Translations under genes and position numbers: made by a program
Origin: an uncultured Chloroflexia bacterium
GTDB lineage: Bacteria > Chloroflexota > Anaerolineae > Anaerolineales > RBG-16-64-43
Length of the DNA: 64,000 nt
Reading direction: 5' to 3'
Assembly: GCA_963780865.1 (NCBI GenBank)
Contig: CAWADT010000009.1
Span: forward strand, 42,134-106,133
In this document: positions 21,375 through 35,704 of the stretch, in pieces
How the letters are laid out: each line of letters begins with the position of its first letter
Position numbering within the stretch: the first letter of the stretch is position 1
The notes under the pieces: generated by a model
What the model saw: the letters and a program-made list of their open reading frames with translations, nothing else
What the model was told of the DNA's origin: nothing
Database searches by the model: none

Positions 21375-21953
21375 TCAATGGCCGCGATTGGAATTTTCAT
21401 CGTCCGTTTCCCATTGCATCGGATTGTTCCGGATATATTTGCGGATCCGGGATAATTCATCCGGATTGCGGATGATGTGTTCATGAAAATTCCGTTGCCA
21501 TACCGGGGCGCCGGGGGTGCCCCGCAATTGGTTGATCCGCGTTGTTACGGCCGATTTATAACCGGCGATTAATGATGACAATGATTTATTGGCGGGGCCA
21601 CGTGGCGTTCCGGGGCGTAGGGGCGACCGGCCGGTCGCCCCTACCAACCCATTCCCGCAATCCACGATATTAACAATTGCGTGGAAATGATTGGGCATGA
21701 CAATGAATTCGTCCAACGCAATTTCGCGACGGATTTCTGCGGTTTTCAACCATTCCGCATTTGCGATTTTCCCCCACGCATTCAAATGCATTACCCCGTC
21801 GATAATTTTGCCGAATATCGATAATCGCCGGTATGAAACAATCGTCACGAAATATGAACCTGGTTGTGTGTAATCGAATCCCTTCAGGCGAATGGACCGG
21901 CGATGCCTGCCCTGAGGTTTCTCGAAGGGATGTTTGAATGGATCGTACGACAT
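21375..21953 (-). CDS. REP-associated tyrosine transposase (RAYT, HUH/Y1)
   Basis: RRSIRLKGFDY, YFVTI, VMPNHFH (HUH), WQRNFHEHIIR, YIRNNP (catalytic Tyr); perfect REP palindrome inside the gene. Confidence 0.92.
   Translation of the reverse strand: MSYDPFKHPFEKPQGRHRRSIRLKGFDYTQPGSYFVTIVSYRRLSIFGKIIDGVMHLNAWGKIANAEWLKTAEIRREIALDEFIVMPNHFHAIVNIVDCGNGLVGATGRSPLRPGTPRGPANKSLSSLIAGYKSAVTTRINQLRGTPGAPVWQRNFHEHIIRNPDELSRIRKYIRNNPMQWETDDENSNRGH
21617..21644. repeat. Perfect 28 bp REP palindrome GTAGGGGCGACCGGCCGGTCGCCCCTAC inside the RAYT gene
   Basis: Sequence equals its own reverse complement; translated as VGATGRSPL. Confidence 0.9.
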
Positions 21954-22017
21954 AATTATCCCCCTGGCGGATTTCATGGATCATTCGCAATTATAAATGG
22001 TTTTCACAATTTGTCAG

Positions 22018-22093: not shown

Positions 22094-25000
22094 ATGCCGC
22101 AAACCGTCATTGAAAACCCGATCCTGAATTCCCCTTTCGATGAACCCCGGCGCCACTTTAAATTCACCGAGGATGGAATAACAGACACGATTGTGCCGGC
22201 CCGGCGCATCAGCTCCTATTTCATTCCCATCCCCAGCCCGAAAAAGAAAAATCCAAAGCAGATTGCCTTCGAAACTGAGTGGACCGCCGACCGGCTCGAA
22301 GATAATAAATTTATCAATCAGATTCGCGAAAAGGTTGCGCTCTGGCGGAAGGGCGGCTGTATAGGTATCACCCGGACAACGGCCCGACTTCTGGAATACT
22401 GGAAGAATCCCGAGCGCGACCATCGCCTGTTTTTCTGCCAGATCGAAGCCCTCGAGACGGTCATCTATATCACCGAGGTGGCGGGAAAATACGGCGAACA
22501 ATGGATCGAGAATACAATTCGCGCCGCGAATGATAGCAGCAACCCGTTATTGAATCGGATTGCCCTCAAGATGGCAACGGGAAGCGGGAAGACGGTCGTC
22601 ATGGCGATGATGATCGCCTGGCATACGCTCAATAAACTGGCCAACCCGCAGGATTCCCGATTTTCCGATGCTTTTCTGATCGTCACGCCCGGAATAACCA
22701 TCCGCGACCGGCTGCGCGTCCTTCTGCCGAACGATCCGAACAATTATTATCGCGAACACGATATTGTTCCTCCCGATCTTATGCCCGAACTTGGAAAGGC
22801 CAAGATCGTGATTACGAACTTCCAGGGATTGATGCTTCGGGAACGAATTCAGGCCGGCAAGGTTACCCGGGGAATTCTGGGCCAGGGAAAAGACAATCCA
22901 TTTCAGGAGACTCCCGGCCAGATGGTCAGGCGGGTGTGCCGCGAGTTAGGTAACAAGAAAAACGTCATCGTGATCAATGACGAAGCGCACCATTGCTACC
23001 GAAGAAAACCGGATCAGGAAGTGGAAGAGGTGTTGATCGGCGACGAGCGCCGCGAAGCGCAAAAACGTGATGAGGAAGCCCGGGTTTGGATATCGGGGCT
23101 TGAGGCGGTGAAGAAGAAGATAGGCGTTCGTGCGGTCTATGACCTCTCCGCCACGCCATTTTTCCTGAGCGGGTCCGGCTATTCGGAAGGCACGCTCTTT
23201 CCATGGGTGGTATCGGATTTCTCGCTGATCGATGCGATCGAATCTGGCATCGTCAAAGTGCCGCGCGTGCCGGTCGCGGACGACCGCATGGCGGGAGATC
23301 AACCGACCTATCGGAATATCTGGCCGCTGATCCGCGAAGGCCTTCCGAAAAAAGGCCGCTCCACCGAAAAGCAGGAAGGCGAGCCGAAAATTCCGGTAGA
23401 ACTGGAAGGCGCGCTGCTGAGCTTGTACGGTAACTACGAGAAATATTACCGGTTGTGGGAGGGGAATGCGAAGGCCCGCGAGCGCGATCTGACCCCGCCG
23501 GTGTTCATCGTCGTTTGCAATAACACCAACGTTTCCAACCTGGTCTATAAATTCGTATCGGGCTGGGAGAAGCAAGTATCCAAAGATAAAACCGTACTGG
23601 TTCCCGGAAAGCTGGCGCTTTTCAATAACGTGGACGGAGAACGCTGGCGATCCCGCCCGAATACGATTCTCATCGACAGCGAGCAATTGGAATCCGGCGA
23701 AGGAATGAGTGCCGAGTTTAAAGCGATTGCCGCGCAGGAGATCGACGAATTCAAGAACGAATACCGGCTGCGCTTCCCGGGCCGGAGCGTCGAGGAATTG
23801 GATGACGAAGACCTGCTGCGGGAAGTGATGAATACGGTGGGGAAAGCGGGCAAACTGGGCGAGAATATTCGCTGCGTGGTTTCCGTCTCGATGCTGACCG
23901 AAGGATGGGACGCAACCACCGTCACCCACATTTTAGGCGTGCGTGCGTTTGGAACGCAGCTTTTGTGCGAACAGGTCGTCGGCCGCGGATTACGGCGCAT
24001 GTCTTATGGCATGCAGAAACATTCTGTGCAGGTTGACGGCGCCACGGTGGAATTCGAAGGCTTCTCGCCGGAATACGCCGAAGTGTACGGGGTGCCATTC
24101 TCATTCATTCCATGCGCCGGTGCGGCCGCCAACCCGCGCCCCGGCCCGATGCCAACCCGCGTACGCGCGCTGGAGGACCGGATCGCCTGCGAGATCACTT
24201 TCCCGCGCGTGATCGGTTATCGTTGCGAGATTCCCTCCGAGCGATTGGATGCTCGCTTTACGCCCAATTCGCTGATGGCGCTAACCACCGCAGATATCCC
24301 TACCCGGACCGAAGTGCAATCGATCATCGGCGAGCACGAGATGCATTCGCTCTACGGCTTGAAGGAAAAGCGCGAGCAGGAGATCGATTTCTATCTGGCG
24401 AAGTTGCTACTCGAGGAACATTTGCGGGACGACGAAGGCGCCGTCAAGCCGTGGCTCTATCCCCAACTCATCCCTATCGTCCGCCGCTGGCGGACCGAAT
24501 GCCTGACGCTAAGAGACGATACCTTCCCCCAAATGTTGCTGATGTCACAATGGGGGCACGCCGCCGCCGATAGAATTTACCGCGCAATCGCTACGGCGCC
24601 CGGCGCGGCGGGAATCCTCAAGCCGATCCTGCGTCCGTACGATACCATCGGCTCCACGCGCTACGTGGATTTCGACACCATCCGCCCGGTTTACCCGACC
24701 GACCCGGCCAAATGCCACATCTCGCACGTCGTGGCCGATACCGGCTCGTGGGAACAGAAGATGGCGCAATCGCTCGAGGAAATGGAAGAAGTTAGGCGAT
24801 ACGTCAAGAATCAGGGATTGGGTTTCAACGTGCCTTATACGCTCGATGGGGAAGAGCACAATTACCAACCCGATTTTATCGCCCAAATCGACGACGGGCA
24901 TGGACCGGACGATCTGCTCAACCTGATCGTCGAAGTGAGCGGTGAAGCGCGCAAGGACAAAGCAGCCAAAACCGCCACGATGCGGTCGCTGTGGATCCCG

Positions 25001-25117
25001 GCCGTCAATAACCACGGCGGTTTCGGGCGCTGGGCGTTCATCGAGATCACCGATCCGTGGGACGCGAAGAATACGATAAGGGCGATTCTAAGAATGGAAA
25101 AAGAGGGGGAGAAATGA
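22094..25117 (+). CDS. res: Type III restriction enzyme Res subunit (SF2 helicase + PD-(D/E)xK nuclease)
   Basis: KMATGSGKT, INDEAHH, SMLTEGWD, EQVVGRGLRR, C-terminal YQPDFI..LIVEVSG; paired with a mod gene. Confidence 0.92.
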   Translation: MPQTVIENPILNSPFDEPRRHFKFTEDGITDTIVPARRISSYFIPIPSPKKKNPKQIAFETEWTADRLEDNKFINQIREKVALWRKGGCIGITRTTARLLEYWKNPERDHRLFFCQIEALETVIYITEVAGKYGEQWIENTIRAANDSSNPLLNRIALKMATGSGKTVVMAMMIAWHTLNKLANPQDSRFSDAFLIVTPGITIRDRLRVLLPNDPNNYYREHDIVPPDLMPELGKAKIVITNFQGLMLRERIQAGKVTRGILGQGKDNPFQETPGQMVRRVCRELGNKKNVIVINDEAHHCYRRKPDQEVEEVLIGDERREAQKRDEEARVWISGLEAVKKKIGVRAVYDLSATPFFLSGSGYSEGTLFPWVVSDFSLIDAIESGIVKVPRVPVADDRMAGDQPTYRNIWPLIREGLPKKGRSTEKQEGEPKIPVELEGALLSLYGNYEKYYRLWEGNAKARERDLTPPVFIVVCNNTNVSNLVYKFVSGWEKQVSKDKTVLVPGKLALFNNVDGERWRSRPNTILIDSEQLESGEGMSAEFKAIAAQEIDEFKNEYRLRFPGRSVEELDDEDLLREVMNTVGKAGKLGENIRCVVSVSMLTEGWDATTVTHILGVRAFGTQLLCEQVVGRGLRRMSYGMQKHSVQVDGATVEFEGFSPEYAEVYGVPFSFIPCAGAAANPRPGPMPTRVRALEDRIACEITFPRVIGYRCEIPSERLDARFTPNSLMALTTADIPTRTEVQSIIGEHEMHSLYGLKEKREQEIDFYLAKLLLEEHLRDDEGAVKPWLYPQLIPIVRRWRTECLTLRDDTFPQMLLMSQWGHAAADRIYRAIATAPGAAGILKPILRPYDTIGSTRYVDFDTIRPVYPTDPAKCHISHVVADTGSWEQKMAQSLEEMEEVRRYVKNQGLGFNVPYTLDGEEHNYQPDFIAQIDDGHGPDDLLNLIVEVSGEARKDKAAKTATMRSLWIPAVNNHGGFGRWAFIEITDPWDAKNTIRAILRMEKEGEK

Positions 25118-25938
25118 AAATGGATGAGATCGGAAACTGGACGGAAGTGAAACTGGAAATTATCCGGGAATACGCTTCAGCATACTCAACGATATTATCC
25201 GCGCAAACGCACCCCAAGCTTCAACACTTCTATATCGACGCCTTTTCCGGGTCGGGGCTTCATATATCCAAGAAGAGCGGCGAGTATGTGGCAGGGAGCA
25301 CCTCAAATGCCTTGGACATCACGCCGCCTTTCCAAGGATTCTTTTTCATAGATATTGATAAAGATAAGGCGCAAATGCTACGGAAAACAACAGAAGGATT
25401 GAAGAATGTTCATATATATGAAGAAGACTGCAACATAACTCTGCTTGCAGAGGTTTTTCCCAAAGTCAAATATGAGGATTATCGCAGGGCTTTGTGCCTT
25501 TTAGATCCATACGGACTGCATTTGGATTGGGAAGTAATCGCAAAGGCGGGAAGTATGCGATCAGTTGAAATATTCCTTAATTTTCCTGTAATGGACATGA
25601 ATCGCAATGTACTTTGGAAAAACCCAGAGAATGTTCCCGCGGATCAGATTTCCCGCATGAATGCGTTCTGGGGGGATAAATCTTGGCGGGATGTGGCATA
25701 TGATACAAGGCAAAGTCTCTTCGGTTATCCGGTAAAAACCGATAACGATACGATTGCATTGGCGTTTCAAGAACGCCTGAAAAAAGTGGCCGGTTTCAAG
25801 CACGTTCCGGTTCCAATTCCGATGAGAAATTCGAAGGAAGCAACTGTTTATTATTTATTTTTCGCTTCACCGAAACCTGTGGCCGCTGATATTGTTTCGC
25901 AGATATTCGATAAATATCGAAAACCAGGAGACCAGTAA
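25114..25938 (+). CDS. tcmP: Three-Cys-motif partner protein (TcmP-type SAM-dependent methyltransferase-like)
   Basis: [11 protein letters not shown]-terminus, [11 protein letters not shown]...AL, FFIDID, LLDPYG, EIFLNFP; ATGA overlap with res; AT-richer than neighbours. Confidence 0.85.
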
Positions 25939-26663
25939 TGGCTAACCATTCCTCTATTGAATGGACCTCATCCACCTGGAATCCACTGACCGGCTGCACC
26001 AAGATCAGCGCCGGGTGCAAGCACTGCTACGCCGAACGGATGGCGAAGCGGCTCCAGGCTATGGGTCAGCCGCATTATTCCGGTGGATTCCGGTTGGCGC
26101 TGCACGAAGATTCGCTCGAATTGCCGCTTTCGTGGAAGAAGCCGCAGATGATCTTTGTCAATTCGATGAGCGATCTTTTCCATAAAAACGTTCCCGTCGA
26201 TTTCATCCAACGCGTTTTCGATGTGATGCGGCGGGCGGACTGGCACCAGTTCCAGGTGCTGACCAAGCGCGCCGACCGGCTGATGGAATTGGACCCGGTT
26301 CTGGATTGGCCGGCCAACGTCTGGATGGGCGTGAGCGTGGAAAACGCGGAGGTTGCGGGCCGAATCGACTTCCTGCGAAATACCCGTGCGCGGATAAAGT
26401 TCCTCTCACTCGAACCGCTGCTCGGGCCGATCCCGGGCATGAACCTGCGCGGGATCGACTGGGTGATCGTCGGCGGAGAATCCGGTCCCGGCGCGCGGCC
26501 GATGGACCGCGAATGGGTGGTCGACATTCGCAGGCAGTGCCGGACTGCCCGCGTCCCGTTCTTCTTCAAGCAGTGGGGCGGAGTGCGCAAGACCAAAGCC
26601 GGCCGTGAACTCGACGGCCGGACGTGGGATGAAATGCCAAGGACCGCAGCTGCCACAACCTAA
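25938..26663 (+). CDS. DUF5131 (phage Gp37/Gp68) family protein with Cx6Cx2C radical-SAM-like motif
   Basis: [68 protein letters not shown]; TAATG overlap with tcmP. Confidence 0.92.
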
Positions 26664-26665
26664 CA

Positions 26666-26752
26666 CCCCTCATCCCCTTCCCTTCTCCCAGCATAAGCTG
26701 GGAGAAGGGTGGCGAGTGCCGGTGATGTTTCCGGCACGAGACGGGATGAGGG
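26666..26752. repeat. CCCTCATCC..TCTCCCAGCATAAGCTGGGAGA..GGATGAGGG REP-like palindrome
   Basis: Same family at 39691-39755, 47453-47531 and 50823-50887. Confidence 0.8.
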
Positions 26753-26769
26753 AGAGAAGGAGAATTTAC

Positions 26770-29574
26770 GTGCCTCGACCAAAGAAATCTGAATCCAAAA
26801 CCGTCCCCGTCACCGCCATTCGCCACCCGGAAAAGCGGACAAACATCCCCACCGATGAGCTGCAGGATTTCGTCTCGGAAGACGAAAAGCATCCCAAGAC
26901 CGTGCTCTATCCGCGCGATACTTCGCTCGACCCGCAATTGGTATGGAAGGGCAAGGACGAACAGGATAGCCACGATCTGACCGTACCGGCCGTCCCGGTT
27001 TACATCCAGGAAAAGATCCATCCACAGGCGATAATCGAGAACGTGCGCACTGAAGCGAAAAAGGGTGCGCCGCAACAAGCTTCGCTTTTTTCCGATTTCA
27101 ACGGCATTTCCTTCGAGGAATTGATCGAGTTTTACCGCCACGAGCAAAACTGGTCAAACCGGATGATCCTGGGCGATTCGCTCCTGGTGATGACCTCGCT
27201 TGCGGAAAAGGAGCGGCTCAAGGGGCAGGTCCAGATGATCTACATCGACCCGCCCTACGGTATCAAGTTCGGCTCCAACTGGCAGGTAAGCACGCGAAAG
27301 CGCGACATAAAGGACGGCAAGGCTGAGGATACGACCCGACAGCCGGAGCAGATCAAAGCGTTCCGGGATACGTGGGAGTTGGGAATACATTCATATCTAG
27401 CATACATGCGAGATAGGTTGGTGGCGGCGAGGGAATTATTATCAGAAAGTGGAAGTATATTTATTCAAATAGGTGATGAAAATGTTCATTTAGTCAGAAA
27501 CATCTTAGATGAGGTATTTGGAAGTGAGAATTTTATTGCGTTGATAACTGTACAAAAAATGGCTGGACTCGCCTCCCAATTCTTGAAAGGAGCTTGTGAT
27601 TACATTATTTGGTATGTAAAGAACAAGGAGCAAACGAAATATCGGCAACTCTATTATGAAAAAATCCTCGGGATTGGTCATGGTTCAGGAGCAAGGTACG
27701 ACCAAATCATCTCACCGTTTGGTGAAAGACGCCCCATAATAAAAGATAATAATGAACTTAAAAATTTTATTGAAGATGGCTGGAGCATTTTCCGACATAC
27801 AACTTTAACTACATTTGGATCAGGTGGATCTTCATTCTTCCAGTTTAAATTTTATGGTGGTAATTACTTGCCAAGCAATACAAAGGGATGGCTTACTACT
27901 GAGAGTGGTATGAATAGACTTGGTATGGCAGGACGCATATCAAAGACGGGAGATTCAATCGGATATATTCGGTTTCTTGAAGATTTTCCAGCTTATGAGA
28001 TTAATAATGTATGGTCTGATATTTCTAGTCCACCCGATGTTATATATGTAGTCCAGACACATTCAAAATTAATTGAACGCTGTATGCTCATGACCACCGA
28101 CCCAGGTGACCTTGTACTCGATCCGACATGCGGTTCTGGCACGACGGCGTATGTCGCCGAACAATGGGGCCGGCGCTGGATCACGATCGATACCTCGCGC
28201 GTCGCGATCGCGCTGGCGCGCACGCGTCTGATGGCCGCGCGCTACCCCTATTATCTGTTAGCCGATACACCCGAAGGCGCAAAGATGGACGCTGAAGCTG
28301 CAGGCCATCTTCCCCCCAACGGCCAGTTGGCAACTACAAGCGGGCTAGCCAATATCAATCGCGGTTTCGTCTACAAGCGCGTCCTGCACGTCACGCTCAA
28401 ATCCATCGCCAACAACGAGGAGATCGATTCGATCCACGCCAAGTGGCAGGAACAACTCGAACCGATCCGTGTCAAACTAAACAAATTGCTCAAGGAAAAC
28501 TGGGAAGAATGGGAAATCCCGCGAGAGCTCCCTTCCCCTAGCCATGGGGGAAGGGATGGGGAAGGGGGTAAGCTTCTCGCCGAATGGTGGAAGTTGCGCC
28601 GCGAGCGACAGCAGGAGATCGACGCCAGCATCGCCAAACGCGCCGATACCGAACTGCTTTACGACCAGCCGTACGAGGATAACAAGCGTATCCGCGTGGC
28701 CGGGCCGTTCACCGTCGAAAGTCTTTCCCCGCACCGGGTGCTCGCCGCCGAGGAAGAACGCCCCGCCACCGAAGCCGCCGGGCAGGCGGAAACGGCGCAG
28801 GGGTTCGTGCAAATGATCATTGACAACTTGAAAGCCGCGGGCGTGCAGAACACCATCAAAAAGGAACGCCTCAAATTCGACCGGTTGGAGCCGTTCGCCG
28901 GCGAGTGGATCCACGCCACCGGCGAATACTCCGAAGGCGGCAAGACCAAGCGCGTTGCGGTTAGCATCGGGCCGGAACATGGTACGGTCGGGAAGGATCA
29001 AATAAAGGAAGCGGCCAAGGAAGCCGTCAAAGGCGTCGGATTCGATCTCCTAATCGTTTGCGGGTTTGCCTTCGATCCACTCGTCAATGATGAATCTAAA
29101 CGGTACGGAAACCTGAATGTGCTGATCACCCACATGAATCCTGATCTTTCGATGGGCGACGAGTTACTCAAGAAAACCGGCGCGGCCAACCTCTTCATGG
29201 TTTTTGGGGAGCCGGATTTGAAAATCGATAAACAAAAAGATGGTCGCATTATTGTAACTATTAAAGGGGTCGACGTTTATGATCCGACGACCGGCGAAAT
29301 TCGCTCGCATTCCACCGACGATATCGCCTGCTGGTTCATCGACACCGACTATAACGGGGAATCCTTCTTCGTCCGGCACGCCTACTTCACCGGAGCCGAT
29401 CAGCCTTACGAAAAGCTCAAACGCGCGCTGCGCGCCGAGGTGGACGAGGCCGCCTGGTCGGCCTTGTATTCCACCAAGAGCCTGCCCTTCGACCCGCCCG
29501 CCAAGGGCAAGATCGCGGTGAAGGTGATCAATCACTACGGGGATGAGGTGATGAAGGTGTATGAGGTGAAATAA
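26770..29574 (+). CDS. mod: Type III R-M methyltransferase Mod subunit (beta-class amino-MTase)
   Basis: IYIDPPYG precedes DPTCGSGTT; AT-rich TRD about 27385-28080; GTG start at 26770 chosen because upstream frame is REP-derived. Confidence 0.92.
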   Translation: MPRPKKSESKTVPVTAIRHPEKRTNIPTDELQDFVSEDEKHPKTVLYPRDTSLDPQLVWKGKDEQDSHDLTVPAVPVYIQEKIHPQAIIENVRTEAKKGAPQQASLFSDFNGISFEELIEFYRHEQNWSNRMILGDSLLVMTSLAEKERLKGQVQMIYIDPPYGIKFGSNWQVSTRKRDIKDGKAEDTTRQPEQIKAFRDTWELGIHSYLAYMRDRLVAARELLSESGSIFIQIGDENVHLVRNILDEVFGSENFIALITVQKMAGLASQFLKGACDYIIWYVKNKEQTKYRQLYYEKILGIGHGSGARYDQIISPFGERRPIIKDNNELKNFIEDGWSIFRHTTLTTFGSGGSSFFQFKFYGGNYLPSNTKGWLTTESGMNRLGMAGRISKTGDSIGYIRFLEDFPAYEINNVWSDISSPPDVIYVVQTHSKLIERCMLMTTDPGDLVLDPTCGSGTTAYVAEQWGRRWITIDTSRVAIALARTRLMAARYPYYLLADTPEGAKMDAEAAGHLPPNGQLATTSGLANINRGFVYKRVLHVTLKSIANNEEIDSIHAKWQEQLEPIRVKLNKLLKENWEEWEIPRELPSPSHGGRDGEGGKLLAEWWKLRRERQQEIDASIAKRADTELLYDQPYEDNKRIRVAGPFTVESLSPHRVLAAEEERPATEAAGQAETAQGFVQMIIDNLKAAGVQNTIKKERLKFDRLEPFAGEWIHATGEYSEGGKTKRVAVSIGPEHGTVGKDQIKEAAKEAVKGVGFDLLIVCGFAFDPLVNDESKRYGNLNVLITHMNPDLSMGDELLKKTGAANLFMVFGEPDLKIDKQKDGRIIVTIKGVDVYDPTTGEIRSHSTDDIACWFIDTDYNGESFFVRHAYFTGADQPYEKLKRALRAEVDEAAWSALYSTKSLPFDPPAKGKIAVKVINHYGDEVMKVYEVK

Positions 29575-30277: not shown

Positions 30278-31183
30278 TTAAGCCTGAACGGATAGCTGTC
30301 GCTCGAATTCGTTGGGCGATTTAAAACCCAACGATGAGTGCTTGCGCCACGTATTATAGAACCCTTCGATGAATTCAAATATTGCCTGATGAGCCTCCTC
30401 TCTTATCCGGTAACCCTCCGGTGGAACCAGCTCCATCTTCAACGTGCTCATAAAGCTTTCCGCTGGCGCATTATCGTAGCAATTACCCGATCGGCTCATG
30501 CTGGGCAAAATCCCATGATCCGATAAATCACCCCGGTACTCACCGCTGGCATACGGGCTGCCCCGGTCCGTGTGATGGATCAGAACTTCTCGAACCACAC
30601 AACGTTGCCGGAGAGCTTCCTGCAACGCCCGACGCGCCAGGTCACGATCGTTATGCTCTCCGTCAGCCCAGCCGACAATCTTGCGAGAGCACAGGTCCAT
30701 GATGATTGCCAAGTACAGCCAGCCTTCCCGGGTGGGAATATACGTGACGTCTCCCACCCAGGCCCGGTTAATTTCCGTGAAGTGGAATTGCTGATCCAGC
30801 AGGTTCGGTGCCACCGGCAGCGACGGATCCGATTGGGTGGTTCGCACCCGACGATAGTGCCGCCGCGCCCGGATTCCATGGGTTTTCATAAGCTTTTCCA
30901 CCCGTTTACGGCCGATCCGCCAGCCTTGATCGTGCAGATCGCGATGCATACGCGGACTGCCATAACGGTGCCGAGTGGCCACTTCCAACTTCCGTAATGC
31001 CAGGAGCAGCCGTTGGTTTTCTGCTTCCCGAGGGCTGGGAGTATGTTTCCGCCAGGCATAATATCCGCTGGCCGAAACCTGCAACGCCCGACACATTCTG
31101 ACCACGGGAAACATGCTTCGGTGATCTCCGATGAATTGAAATTTCACCGCTGGTCTTGCGAAAAAACACGGACCGCTTTTTTT
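30278..31183 (-). CDS. IS3 OrfB DDE transposase/integrase core (expressed by -1 frameshift)
   Basis: RYGSPRM HTH, WVGDVTY, HHTDRGSPY, DNAPAESF..LKME. Confidence 0.92.
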   Translation of the reverse strand, partial: KKSGPCFFARPAVKFQFIGDHRSMFPVVRMCRALQVSASGYYAWRKHTPSPREAENQRLLLALRKLEVATRHRYGSPRMHRDLHDQGWRIGRKRVEKLMKTHGIRARRHYRRVRTTQSDPSLPVAPNLLDQQFHFTEINRAWVGDVTYIPTREGWLYLAIIMDLCSRKIVGWADGEHNDRDLARRALQEALRQRCVVREVLIHHTDRGSPYASGEYRGDLSDHGILPSMSRSGNCYDNAPAESFMSTLKMELVPPEGYRIREEAHQAIFEFIEGFYNTWRKHSSLGFKSPNEFERQLSVQA

Positions 31184-31440
31184 AGGATGTCCCGCTCCAA
31201 CCGGAGGTTGGCATTTTCCTTCTCTAGCTGCTCGATCCGAGTTTCTGCTTCTTTCAAATTGCCATGTCCGGGAAATGCCTGTTCCCCATTCTGGCGGAGC
31301 TGCCGTTGCCAACGGAAGATGGCGCCTGCCGGTAGTCCCATTTCCCGTTCGATTTGCGAGACCGACTTTTCGCTCGTCTCGGCCAGCCTGAGCGTTTCCA
31401 GCTTGAATTCCTTTGTGTAGCTCCTGCGTGGATTGACCAT
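31144..31440 (-). CDS. IS3 OrfA (HTH)
   Basis: RRSYTKEFK, HTH, leucine zipper LEKENANLRLERDILKKA. Confidence 0.92.
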   Translation of the reverse strand: MVNPRRSYTKEFKLETLRLAETSEKSVSQIEREMGLPAGAIFRWQRQLRQNGEQAFPGHGNLKEAETRIEQLEKENANLRLERDILKKAVRVFSQDQR

Positions 31441-31951: not shown

Positions 31952-34900
31952 ATGGGAAACATTAGCCAAGGGTCGCGACAATTACCTCTACGGCACATCT
32001 CCATCCGTGTTCCATGGAACGATACCAATTGGAGCGGTATTGTATGCCAAAAACCGGCCGATAATGCATCCTGCCTTATCCTTCGGCGAATTCGAGCGAC
32101 TCGCAAGGATGCAGAGGAAACATCAGTGGCCGGAAAAACCTGGAATGACTTGTCACAGGAAAATCTGCCTCCTTGTGTCAGTGAGCATGGCCAGTTCATG
32201 TCTCCATGTGAATTGGTACGGAATATTCAGCATCCTTATGCCGAACACAGTGAGGCACATAAGCATATCGTTCCCACACCTTACCGGTACGCGCCATACT
32301 CCGCAGCAGCAGTTCCTTTCAACTGGATGCTGCGTGAATCCGCTGAAGATATCGTTAAAAAGTTTGAATTGGGGTACCAACCCGCCTTGGAAACACAAGC
32401 CGATGAAATCATGGGGTATGAGACTTCCTGGGTCCAGGAAAAAGAAAATCAGCTGGTTATGTTGGACACCTTCTTCAGCGCCATCCAACCTCAAAAATCG
32501 CTGGTCTTCTTCTATGCCAAACGGACACCTCTAGTTGATGACGTTCGACGTGTTCTGATAGGGGTTGGGTGGGTGACTCATGTCGGCGATCCAGTCGAAT
32601 ACAAATACAAGGAAGCCGGCACGCTAAAAAGTGTTTTGTGGGAAAGAAATATCCAACATTCTATCCGCGATGGTTTTAAGGATGGTTTTCTACTGCCCTA
32701 CCACGAGGTGATCAAATACCTCGAGCAACACCCTGACGATGACCCTTCGAAATATGTGGCATTTATTCCGGATGATCAATTCTGGGCTTTCAGTTATGGG
32801 AGTCAACATATCACCAATGATGGAGCGATTGGTTCACTGCTTGCTTGTGGGAAGGCCATCCAGAATATCCAGAAAATCATCCCCGGAAAATGGGAACAAG
32901 TCCTTTCTTGGTTAGATGCTAGATTAAATGAATTGTGGGATATGCGCGGACCATGCCCGGGCCTTGGTTCAGCTCTAACGGCCTTTGGCCTGGAAAATGG
33001 ATCGCTTGTTGCATATGAATTGGAACGCATTCTGACCGAAAAACCGGAAACGGTTGGCACTGATCCCTGGCCATTGGTGGACCGCTTGTTCAAACAACCG
33101 GAAACTTTTCCGCCAGAGATTGGGAAAAAAGTTGGCAAGACTCTGCAAAAACTTTGGATGACTTTACCTGATGAACGCCGGGCATTGCTCAAACTGCTCA
33201 GCCGTTTTGAACTGACTGCGCCGCAAGCCACTCGTTATTATGTCCATGAGGAAAAACAACGAGCGGATTTCTGTATTAAAGCGGATGATTTGGAACTTAT
33301 CTCCAATCCTTACCGGCTTTATGAATTGGATCGTGTAACGCCCGATCCGGTCAACCTGGCTACAGTCGACCGAGGCATTTTTCCAGATGAAAGCATCCGT
33401 CAAAAATATCCGGTGCCTGCACAATCGCAGATCCCGGACGCGTTGGATCCCCGCCGAGTATGTGCATTTGTGATTCGCCAGTTGGATCTTGCAACGCAAA
33501 ATGGGCATACCTTGCAACCCCGTGACAAGATCATTCAAGAAATTCGCGAATTGGATGTTCAGCCTGATTGTCCCGTAACCGGCGACTTAATGTCCGTGGT
33601 GGAGCAGGCCTTTGAACCCCGTGTCCATGTTATAAAACTTCACGACGATAAACACGCATACCAGCTTGATGAACTCTATAAAGCTGGAGAAAAAATACGA
33701 TCGAATATTACGCGCCGCCCAAGCGGCACGCGCCATAGCGCGAAAATCGATTGGGAGAAGCTTCTGGCCGAGGCGATCAAATCTCCCGTCGATACCGCAG
33801 ACCAGGATGAAGCAAATGCGCGAAAGGAAAAAACGGCCGCACTTGAAGAATTATTTGCATCCCGCTTCTCCGTTCTGATTGGACCTGCCGGTACAGGTAA
33901 AACCACTTTGCTTAAAGTGCTAAGTCATGAACCTTCTGTAGCCGCAGGAGGGGTTTTACTACTTGCTCCCACCGGAAAAGCACGCGTTAGGATGGAAACG
34001 CAGGCAGAATTGAAAGGAGCTCAAACCATTGCGCAATTATTACTGCCGCTTGACCGATATGAACCGCAAACAGGCATATATCGTCCATCCAACCGAAATC
34101 CGGGGGTAGACAGTTATAAAACCGTCATTATCGATGAAGCGTCCATGCTAACTGAAGATCAGCTTGCGGCGGTAATGGATGGGATCAAGGGCGCAGAAAG
34201 GATTATTCTTGTAGGAGATCCTCGGCAACTTCCTCCGATTGGCGCCGGTCGTCCTTTCCTCGACATCGTACAGAAGCTGACTCCGGAGAATACTGATTTC
34301 ATATTTCCTCGAATTGGTCCAGGTTATGCCGAACTGACCATCCGACGGCGTCAAATTGGTGAAAAGAGGGATGATTTACTCCTAGCGGAATGGTTTAGCG
34401 GTCGCCCTCTGGATCCGGGAGCAGATGAAATCTGGCAAAAGATCCAAGAAGGAACACATTCGAATCATTTGGACTTTGTTGAATGGAACAACCCCGAGGA
34501 CCTTCAAAATATATTGTTGGACACTCTTGTGAAAGAGTTGAACTTAGATGGAAGAGACGATTCAAACAAATTTGAAGTATCTTTGGGCGGCTCAGAATTC
34601 AAAGAGTACGTATTTTTCTGGGAAACAAAAGCTGGAAAAACGGGTGCTTGCTCAAAAGTGGAGGACTGGGAAATCTTATCCCCGGTTCGCAATAATCCAT
34701 TCGGTGTGGAAGCCCTCAATCGCCTCATCCAGACTACATTCCGCACTAAAACAAAAGAATGGGCTTCGAAGAAATACGGGCGAAAAATACCGAAACCAAT
34801 GGGCCGTGAAGAAATATTGTATGGAGACAAGGTAATTCAAACCCAGAATCAGAGGCGTTTCAAGGTATATCCAAAGGAAAATGCGCTTAACTATGTCGCC

Positions 34901-35704
34901 AACGGTGAATTAGGGATTGCTGTTGGGCAGTATAAAACAAAGAATATGAATTTCACACCGTATGCCCTGGAAATCGAGTTTTCGTCGCAGCCCGGTTTTA
35001 AGTACTCCTATTCCGGCGGAGATTTTGTAGAAGAATCGTATCCGACACTGGAGTTGGCGTACGCATTGACAGTCCACAAAACACAAGGTTCGGAATTTGG
35101 CCTTACATTTGTGGTCATCCCTAACCCCTGTCGTCTGCTTTCTCGCGAACTCCTATACACGGCCTTAACACGGCAAAGAAATAGGGTCGTTGTATTCCAC
35201 CAAGGTCCTTTGCAGGATTTGAAAAATTACTCCAACGATTTCTACTCCGAGTTTGCAGCTCGATTGACAAATCTTCTGGATGCTCCAAAACCGGTAGAGG
35301 TAATTGAGAAATTCCTTGAAGACAAACTGATTCATAGAACCGGGAAAGGTATTTGCATGCGGTCCAAGTCGGAGGTAATCATTGCTTCTGAATTTGATCA
35401 TGCGGGGATAGAATACACCTATGAGAGCAAGTTGTTGGGGCAAGATGGAACCGCGCGTTACCCAGACTTTGTAATCAATGATGTTGAGAGCGGTCGCCAG
35501 TATTATTGGGAACATCTTGGCATGCTTTATAAGCCGGACTATAAGCAGCGCTGGGAAAAGAAGCTCGCCTGGTATAGGAAACAAGGCATACTTCCGATAG
35601 AAGAAGGCGGCGGATCACATGGAATTTTGATTACTACGGCCGACCATCCAAACGGCGCAATTGATGTAACAGAAATTCAAGGGATAATTAAGAAAATTTC
35701 CTAG
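31952..35704 (+). CDS. RecD2-like SF1B helicase with ~600-aa unassigned N-terminus and C-terminal PD-(D/E)xK (Vsr/DUF559-like) nuclease, 1250 aa
   Basis: GPAGTGKTT, APTGKA, IIDEASM, GDPRQLPPIG, YALTVHKTQGSEF, LYTALTR; C-terminal RSKSEVIIA..YPDFVI..YWEHLGM. Confidence 0.88.
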   Translation: MGNISQGSRQLPLRHISIRVPWNDTNWSGIVCQKPADNASCLILRRIRATRKDAEETSVAGKTWNDLSQENLPPCVSEHGQFMSPCELVRNIQHPYAEHSEAHKHIVPTPYRYAPYSAAAVPFNWMLRESAEDIVKKFELGYQPALETQADEIMGYETSWVQEKENQLVMLDTFFSAIQPQKSLVFFYAKRTPLVDDVRRVLIGVGWVTHVGDPVEYKYKEAGTLKSVLWERNIQHSIRDGFKDGFLLPYHEVIKYLEQHPDDDPSKYVAFIPDDQFWAFSYGSQHITNDGAIGSLLACGKAIQNIQKIIPGKWEQVLSWLDARLNELWDMRGPCPGLGSALTAFGLENGSLVAYELERILTEKPETVGTDPWPLVDRLFKQPETFPPEIGKKVGKTLQKLWMTLPDERRALLKLLSRFELTAPQATRYYVHEEKQRADFCIKADDLELISNPYRLYELDRVTPDPVNLATVDRGIFPDESIRQKYPVPAQSQIPDALDPRRVCAFVIRQLDLATQNGHTLQPRDKIIQEIRELDVQPDCPVTGDLMSVVEQAFEPRVHVIKLHDDKHAYQLDELYKAGEKIRSNITRRPSGTRHSAKIDWEKLLAEAIKSPVDTADQDEANARKEKTAALEELFASRFSVLIGPAGTGKTTLLKVLSHEPSVAAGGVLLLAPTGKARVRMETQAELKGAQTIAQLLLPLDRYEPQTGIYRPSNRNPGVDSYKTVIIDEASMLTEDQLAAVMDGIKGAERIILVGDPRQLPPIGAGRPFLDIVQKLTPENTDFIFPRIGPGYAELTIRRRQIGEKRDDLLLAEWFSGRPLDPGADEIWQKIQEGTHSNHLDFVEWNNPEDLQNILLDTLVKELNLDGRDDSNKFEVSLGGSEFKEYVFFWETKAGKTGACSKVEDWEILSPVRNNPFGVEALNRLIQTTFRTKTKEWASKKYGRKIPKPMGREEILYGDKVIQTQNQRRFKVYPKENALNYVANGELGIAVGQYKTKNMNFTPYALEIEFSSQPGFKYSYSGGDFVEESYPTLELAYALTVHKTQGSEFGLTFVVIPNPCRLLSRELLYTALTRQRNRVVVFHQGPLQDLKNYSNDFYSEFAARLTNLLDAPKPVEVIEKFLEDKLIHRTGKGICMRSKSEVIIASEFDHAGIEYTYESKLLGQDGTARYPDFVINDVESGRQYYWEHLGMLYKPDYKQRWEKKLAWYRKQGILPIEEGGGSHGILITTADHPNGAIDVTEIQGIIKKIS

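Follow-up and report, generated by a model that had tools for sequence, protein, structure and literature searches.

The DNA analyzed here is a stretch of 64,000 nucleotides (nt) of contig CAWADT010000009.1 from an uncultured Chloroflexia bacterium, referred to below as the window. At positions 25114-26663 it carries two adjacent genes, tcmP and a gene of the DUF5131 family, which are located between the res and mod genes of a restriction-modification (R-M) locus (Table 1). A first reading of the window from its letters alone (the sequence-only reading) had regarded the four genes as one system. When related loci were compared, the space between res and mod was found to be a slot that holds alternative cargo and has turned over repeatedly, and the pair is one of its cargoes.

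The window locus and its host R-M system

The gene order res-tcmP-DUF5131-mod and the two overlaps described for it, ATGA at 25114-25117 between res and tcmP and TAATG at 25936-25940 between tcmP and DUF5131, were confirmed in the sequence. Translational coupling, which had been proposed for the embedded module, fits these two junctions but does not extend to mod, which starts at ATG 26725 (probable) or 26746 and thus at least 61 nt past the DUF5131 stop.

Table 1. Genes and features of the window locus.
Feature	Position	Strand	Length	Basis
res	22094-25117	+	1007 aa	NCBIfam NF046055 and Pfam ResIII matches
tcmP	25114-25938	+	274 aa	TIGR04474 and PDC-M41A matches
DUF5131 (Gp37/Gp68 family)	25938-26663	+	241 aa	PF07505, PDC-M41B and PDC-M30B matches
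REP-like (repetitive extragenic palindrome) nested palindrome, DUF5131-mod spacer	26664-26752	no strand		Inverted repeats and genome DNA search
mod	~26725-29574	+		PADLOC MTase_III model PDLC03632, Pfam N6_N4_Mtase

Res scored 1188.7 bits (cut-off 800) against NCBIfam NF046055, the 'BPTD_3080 family restriction endonuclease', and contains the superfamily 2 (SF2) helicase motifs KMATGSGKT, NDEAHH, TEGWD and QVVGRGLR. Its C-terminal block YQPDF...IVEVSGEARK is nuclease-like, with no textbook ExK. Sequence searches found no relatives of Res in the PDB, and more than 8000 candidate homologues, 66-75% identical, were found in many phyla. Mod matched the PADLOC model with 1005 bits and shows the motif order IYIDPPYG, a variable AT-rich region and DPTCGSGTT, followed by the long C-terminal module typical of the family. 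Judged by these motifs, Mod is a beta-class N6-adenine DNA methyltransferase with an internal target recognition domain (TRD).

The locus had been called a type III R-M operon. The beta-class Mod and its MTase_III match agree with this, but the gene order and the Res protein do not: against the classical type III endonuclease model PRK15483, Res scored only 18 bits (cut-off 564), and res precedes mod in all 69 related loci that show both genes (see below). In classical type III systems of the EcoP15I type the order is mod then res, whereas in the BPTD_3080 family it is res then mod. Therefore, the host system is called type III-like (BPTD_3080 family). An SF2-helicase Res, a beta-class Mod and the res-then-mod order are common to the NF046055 family and the window; Mod of this family typically has ~900-950 aa.

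A variable cargo slot between res and mod

For the analysis of the slot, 80 loci were fetched via Res and supplemented by the contigs on which the two closest Res proteins are encoded, and genes were located by tblastn. The end of res and the start of mod were both visible in 69 loci, which were used for the gap statistics. The distance between the two genes was multimodal. In 18 of the 69 loci they are adjacent or overlapping, and these empty loci have res and mod joined by a ATGGCTAA overlap; the other 51 contain 0.5-4 kb of inserted genes.

The inserted open reading frames (ORFs) were clustered and then scanned with Pfam and PADLOC. TcmP+DUF5131 was present in 15 of 83 loci, with the window counted, and Bro-N/PDC-S13 in ~11. 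Further cargo consisted of OLD/Gabija-like AAA_15/AAA_21 ATPases (7 loci), GmrSD-like HEC-05 and HEC-06 (5 loci), AIPR/AbiU (3 loci) and Schlafen/AlbA_2, NACHT and HNH genes (one locus each). IS200-like Y1 (RAYT-type) transposases were found in the slot of four loci (L009, L036, L055 and L071, e.g. L071:10999-11664), which shows that not all cargo is defence. In ~19 loci the cargo was unannotated. Of the 97 embedded ORFs of at least 100 aa, 86 run in the same direction as res and mod.

Among the unannotated slot genes are L037:4106-5035, L042:11056-12177, L050:11018-12184 and L060:3582-4685 as well as L049:4099-5673, L069:8268-9077 and L046:5461-6165, which were not run against family libraries. 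By the logic of embedding, the unannotated slot genes are candidate defence genes. Three slot copies of DUF5131 lack a recognizable TcmP (L041:10994-13469, L065:6111-7088 and L077:11166-11918). The copy in L041 directly follows an OLD-like ATPase, and that in L077 is followed by three small ORFs. In such copies either the pair has decayed or a different gene has become the partner.

Repeated turnover of the pair and independence from R-M

On the Res tree the pair-bearing loci are scattered, and well-supported branches force at least eight gains or losses. Close Res sisters differ in their cargo: L021 carries GmrSD, L023 the pair and L031 none. The slot has captured pairs of the PDC-M41 type as well as of the PDC-M30 type, which has a long TcmP (L075). 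The specificity parts of the two modules were also exchanged separately. L002, whose Res is 88% identical to that of the window, has a TcmP type in its slot that is only 29% identical, and in L001 and L081 the TRD of Mod was exchanged while TcmP remained 89-90% identical. As far as these sequences tell, the specificity parts of Mod and TcmP move independently.

Two further samples were used, one of 401 genomes of the phylum, in which gene coordinates were compared by eye, and one of the 80 metagenomic loci in which DUF5131 showed the highest similarity. DUF5131 was present in 101 of the 401 phylum genomes (25%) and the Res family in 48-63, and the two were co-localized in only one genome, that of the window itself. 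A regular location of the pair between res and mod was not borne out: it has this location in the 15 of 83 loci fetched via Res, in one of the 401 phylum genomes and in ~4 of ~31 well-flanked metagenomic loci, the others of which have it elsewhere. Among 140 ORFs neighboring non-embedded pairs no constant DNA methyltransferase was found; the neighbors were heterogeneous, with no constant partner. The two genes of the pair are themselves adjacent in most related loci, in agreement with the habitual partnership that had been stated for them.

A dedicated clade of embedded DUF5131 proteins was looked for and rejected. Embedded and non-embedded copies are interspersed with 11-12 changes, two of which are forced by well-supported branches, in a tree that is poorly resolved.

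These results bear on an integrated four-component variant of R-M, in which the pair would add or elaborate a modification at the sites of Mod, or would read adenine methylation and attack DNA that lacks it, a single Mod thus protecting against two effectors. Such a system would fit the at least eight independent captures in one slot, the start/stop overlaps seen with res in several lineages independently and with mod in L110 (next section), the co-divergence of res, tcmP and DUF5131 in the window clade and the fact that Mod and the closest solved relative of TcmP are both N6-adenine methyltransferases. It is at odds with the 18 of 69 loci without an insert and the many others with unrelated cargo of at least eight other types, with the great majority of pairs residing away from the BPTD_3080 R-M family, with the lack of a constant methyltransferase neighbor and with the swaps of the Mod TRD without a change of TcmP and of TcmP without a change of Res. 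On balance an integrated variant, the main idea of the sequence-only reading, is distinctly unlikely, and res-tcmP-DUF5131-mod is not supported as an obligate four-gene system.

Slot edges, exchange scars and selection

L080, L023, L028 and L110 share with the window clade a 4-nt overlap between res and tcmP; in L110, DUF5131 additionally overlaps mod by 4 nt. Past the conserved motif DPWDAxNxIR (DPWDAKNTIRA in the window) the Res tail depends on which cargo is present, so that the slot begins just after DPWDAxNxIR(A). Its right edge falls within the first ~20 codons of mod. Counts of internal promoters and terminators in the locus were no higher than expected from shuffled sequence, and a search for RNA runs that contain the stretch gave none.

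Six loci contain a second, truncated copy of the 3' end of res, comprising the last 25-53 codons with their own stop: L015:11660-11830, L034:11830-11976, L050:12477-12605, L068:7767-7886, L100:3321-3416 and L107:4761-4880. In L015 and L100 the stop of this copy shares bases with the ATG of the cargo gene that follows; L107 lacks a res gene, and its lone tail is followed by a long-TcmP/DUF5131 pair. From their sequences, the truncated tails are read as scars left when cassettes were transferred by recombination within the 3' end of res. A shared recombinant Res C-terminus in pair-bearing loci was also considered and rejected: sliding identity revealed no such tract, and over the final 60 aa identity is 63-79% in pair-bearing and other loci alike.

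Compared with L081, the numbers of synonymous substitutions per site (dS) are 0.65 for res, 0.64 for tcmP and 0.56 for DUF5131. The ratio of nonsynonymous to synonymous substitutions (dN/dS) is 0.07-0.09 for the tcmP/DUF5131 pair and 0.05-0.09 when res, tcmP and DUF5131 are taken together. The similar dS and low dN/dS indicate that the operon was inherited as a unit in the window clade and that the cassette genes are under purifying selection.

TcmP resembles RlmJ and DUF5131 resembles radical-SAM enzymes

The motifs named in the sequence-only reading, DAFSGSG and DPY in TcmP and Cx6Cx2C in DUF5131, are present and conserved among homologues. TcmP matched TIGR04474 (three-Cys-motif partner protein) with 193 bits (cut-off 53) over profile positions 1-262 of 263 and PADLOC PDC-M41A with 244.7 bits, and no Pfam model matched it. 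The gene has a GC content of 0.43-0.46 and is AT-richer than its neighbors. The motifs YIDAFSGSG and LLDPYG include residues D42, G46, G48, D131 and P132, none of which varies among 24 homologues. With a profile of these 24 sequences, RlmJ was the only meaningful relative in the PDB (E 8.3e-05), the alignment spanning YxDxxAGxG, GSP and the motif IV region. The AlphaFold2 model of TcmP has a predicted local distance difference test (pLDDT) score of 93, and its top Foldseek match was again RlmJ (E 5.7e-07, TM 0.52). Its earlier likening to amino-methyltransferases is therefore borne out by profile and by fold.

RlmJ, the m6A2030 methyltransferase of E. coli 23S rRNA (PDB 4blu, 6qdx and 7p8q), is the best likeness of TcmP, but the identity is ~12% and motif IV reads D-P-Y/F-G in TcmP and D-P-P-Y in RlmJ. 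Unlike RlmJ, TcmP is always partnered with a radical-SAM-type gene, and its long paralogues bear a winged helix-turn-helix domain. From sequence profile and model, TcmP is predicted to have an RlmJ-like class I methyltransferase fold as a distant relative of RlmJ and not as a member of its family. The additional domain of the long paralogues is a GMT-like winged-helix domain, which points to DNA as the target. Among relatives TcmP is 23-90% identical and DUF5131 65-77%, and this difference suggests that TcmP might be the target-recognition subunit and DUF5131 the catalytic one.

DUF5131 scored 346 bits against PF07505 (cut-off 28.9), 408.9 bits against PDC-M41B and 394 bits against PDC-M30B; against TIGR04471 (radical SAM mobile pair protein A) it reached 82 bits, below the cut-off. 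Its three cysteines, C20-x6-C27-x2-C30, and the motif GGESG are invariant in 29 homologues, and a motif FFFKQWGG is also present. The Cx6Cx2C spacing differs from the canonical Cx3Cx2C of radical enzymes dependent on S-adenosylmethionine (SAM). SFLD and RadicalSAM.org class DUF5131 as a radical-SAM subgroup, and the latter places it in megacluster 5-2, beside spore photoproduct lyase in 5-3. By sequence search no relatives of DUF5131 were found in the PDB. The model (pLDDT 76) consists of alternating strands and helices that form a partial barrel, and its top Foldseek match, spore photoproduct lyase, was weak (E 6.9e-03, TM 0.38/0.29, 12% identity), with TIM barrels also among the best matches. 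Spore photoproduct lyase (PDB 4fhf) and DUF5131 have in common three N-terminal cysteines, a GGE motif and, to judge from the model of DUF5131, a putative partial TIM barrel, but DUF5131 is 100 aa shorter and has the Cx6Cx2C spacing. With its cysteines and GGE motif, DUF5131 looks like a small radical-SAM-type enzyme, as had been proposed.

The likeness to spore photoproduct lyase, both in fold and in the neighboring megaclusters, could be understood if the pair were a DNA-damage or repair module, in which a radical-SAM enzyme would directly reverse damage without oxygen, TcmP would present the damaged base and the location in the R-M operon would be incidental. In two loci (L101:2402-6729 and L113:2426-6729) a long TcmP paralogue and DUF5131 are directly preceded by a gene for a family-B DNA polymerase, which may point to a connection with the tolerance of DNA damage in some lineages, and gp37 of Burkholderia phage phiE125 (L174), a DUF5131 protein, is encoded near a gene for an SOS-response-associated peptidase. 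However, among the 80 metagenomic relatives a LexA-type box (CTGT-N8-ACAG or GAAC-N4-GTTC) was found near the pair in one, L105, and SOS control was rejected for this subfamily. Furthermore, the known genes among the alternative slot cargo are defence genes and not repair genes, and the patchy spread of the pair over a quarter of the phylum genomes, together with the fast swapping of TcmP, fits an arms-race module better than a housekeeping one. Repair is therefore considered unlikely as the role of the pair.

Occurrence of the pair in phages

DUF5131 was identified in 181 of 50,697 phage records, mostly from temperate actinophages and Burkholderia phages. TcmP of the window type was almost absent from phages, with two weak matches. 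In Gordonia phage Angelique (L172, MH651167.1 32816-34668), a PDC-M30-type pair, composed of the DUF5131 protein gp42 and the 'methyltransferase' gp43 in convergent orientation, is flanked by the tyrosine integrase on one side and the immunity repressor on the other. The lysogeny region of actinophages is the usual place of prophage-expressed defence genes. In phiE125, gp37 is also near the integrase; gp38 (350 aa) overlaps it. The proteins after which the Pfam family is named, gp68 of Mycobacterium phage Che9c (L173, 386 aa) and phiE125 gp37 (330 aa), are longer than DUF5131 of the window, and no TcmP recognizable by PADLOC is present beside either of them.

This occurrence in mostly temperate phages, the C5-cytosine methyltransferase encoded two genes upstream of Che9c gp68 and the assignment of both proteins as SAM enzymes would be expected of an epigenetic or anti-restriction module of mobile elements, with which the carrier marks its own DNA and for which the R-M location would be passive hitch-hiking. 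Such a role is very improbable: in Angelique and phiE125 the gene is placed in the lysogeny region by the integrase (in Angelique also by the repressor) and away from replication and early genes, and window-type TcmP is nearly lacking in phages.

The Mod TRD, the DUF5131-mod spacer and neighboring genes

The TRD of Mod is encoded at ~27530-28060 (residues ~270-445) with a GC content of ~0.38. It is only 31-33% identical to the TRDs of the 95%-related loci L001 and L081; the flanks of Mod are 90-100% identical. From this pattern, the difference looks like a recent horizontal swap of the TRD, by which the recognition sequence was probably changed.

The spacer between DUF5131 and mod contains a nested palindrome, in which CCCTTCTCCCAGC/GCTGGGAGAAGGG (26680-26692/26697-26709) is enclosed by CCCTCATCCC/GGGATGAGGG (26667-26676/26743-26752). 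A DNA search of the 3.1-Mb genome gave 84 matches at roughly at least 40 places. The palindrome is thus a dispersed repeat specific to the window genome, a REP-like element that settled there and is no part of the cassette or the system.

A RAYT-like gene (21375-21977) is located just upstream of res. Downstream of an IS3 element (30278-31312), positions 31952-35704 encode a helicase-nuclease of 1250 aa that matched the PADLOC candidate PDC-S68 with 1610 bits, and its surroundings form a small defence island.

Discussion

The results are probably best explained if positions 25114-26663 are an autonomous mobile TcmP+DUF5131 cassette, one of several cargoes of the slot, which is co-expressed as a second defence module beside the R-M system. 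A defence role is the best-supported reading of the pair and is regarded as putative, and it corresponds to the 'backup defence arm' that the sequence-only reading had offered as an option. Cassettes would enter and leave the slot by recombination in the conserved flanks, and a moving cassette may carry a short res tail along. Once in place, it would be transcribed from the promoter of the R-M system, translated in step with Res and act alone as a second line of defence, outside the restriction enzyme. Within the cassette, TcmP would bind SAM, have a pocket of the base-flipping type (D-P-Y/F) and, as the variable subunit, recognize a nucleic-acid target, and DUF5131, as the conserved partner, would use a [4Fe-4S] cluster and SAM for radical chemistry on the base or sugar presented by TcmP.

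Several points weigh against this view. No report of anti-phage activity of PDC-M41 or PDC-M30, and none on the function of DUF5131, TcmP, PF07505, PDC-M41 or BPTD_3080, was found in the searchable literature. To argue from the defence genes that share the slot is guilt by association, and the slot also holds RAYT transposases and small genes resembling toxin-antitoxin genes. How often the pair occupies the slot depends on the sample, from 15 of 83 loci collected by Res similarity, a value that may be biased upward, to one of ~48 in the phylum. The fold of DUF5131 is weakly supported (pLDDT 76, Foldseek E 7e-03) and its cysteine spacing is non-canonical. Finally, there is room for a cooperation with R-M, given that the pair was captured repeatedly, that its 4-nt overlap with res is conserved and that TcmP and Mod both resemble adenine-N6-methyltransferases. 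One form of such a cooperation would make the pair a new restriction-like effector, in which TcmP picks the site or the state of a base and DUF5131 damages or rewrites the nucleic acid without oxygen, and the repeated capture of the pair beside Res, with translational coupling, would reflect a synergy with self-marking by adenine methylation. This idea is highly doubtful.

The pair had been described as having no characterized example. This is true for its function, but the pair is already catalogued as PDC-M41/M30 in PADLOC, where PDC candidates were defined by their embedding in multi-gene defence systems, termed 'guilt-by-embedding' (Payne, Hughes, Fineran and Jackson, bioRxiv 10.1101/2024.01.29.577857). 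The systems mined in that study were Hma, BREX, DISARM and type I R-M (Payne et al., bioRxiv 10.1101/2024.01.29.577857). The window genes match PDC-M41A/B strongly and show the same pair and adjacency, but their host belongs to the res-first type III-like family, which is outside the systems mined. Embedded genes such as PrrC in type I R-M provide a second likeness, as they are self-contained, co-oriented modules with alternative cargo at the same position. In contrast to embedding of the PrrC type, the BPTD_3080 slot is situated between res and mod, its cargo often overlaps res and exchange is marked by duplications of the res tail. The window locus is most likely a new example of the known embedding in defence loci and not a four-part enzyme, and the claim of a four-subunit restriction enzyme is removed.

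With this, 'guilt-by-embedding' is extended to a res-first, type III-like family of very large size, for which the slot edges and the res-tail scars left by cassette exchange are now defined. The slot could also be a resource for discovery, as its unannotated cargo could be screened for new defence candidates. The pair is widespread, being found in 25% of the sampled phylum genomes, in many phyla and in temperate phages, and the natural operon that joins it with R-M in the window lends itself to initial tests of its function.

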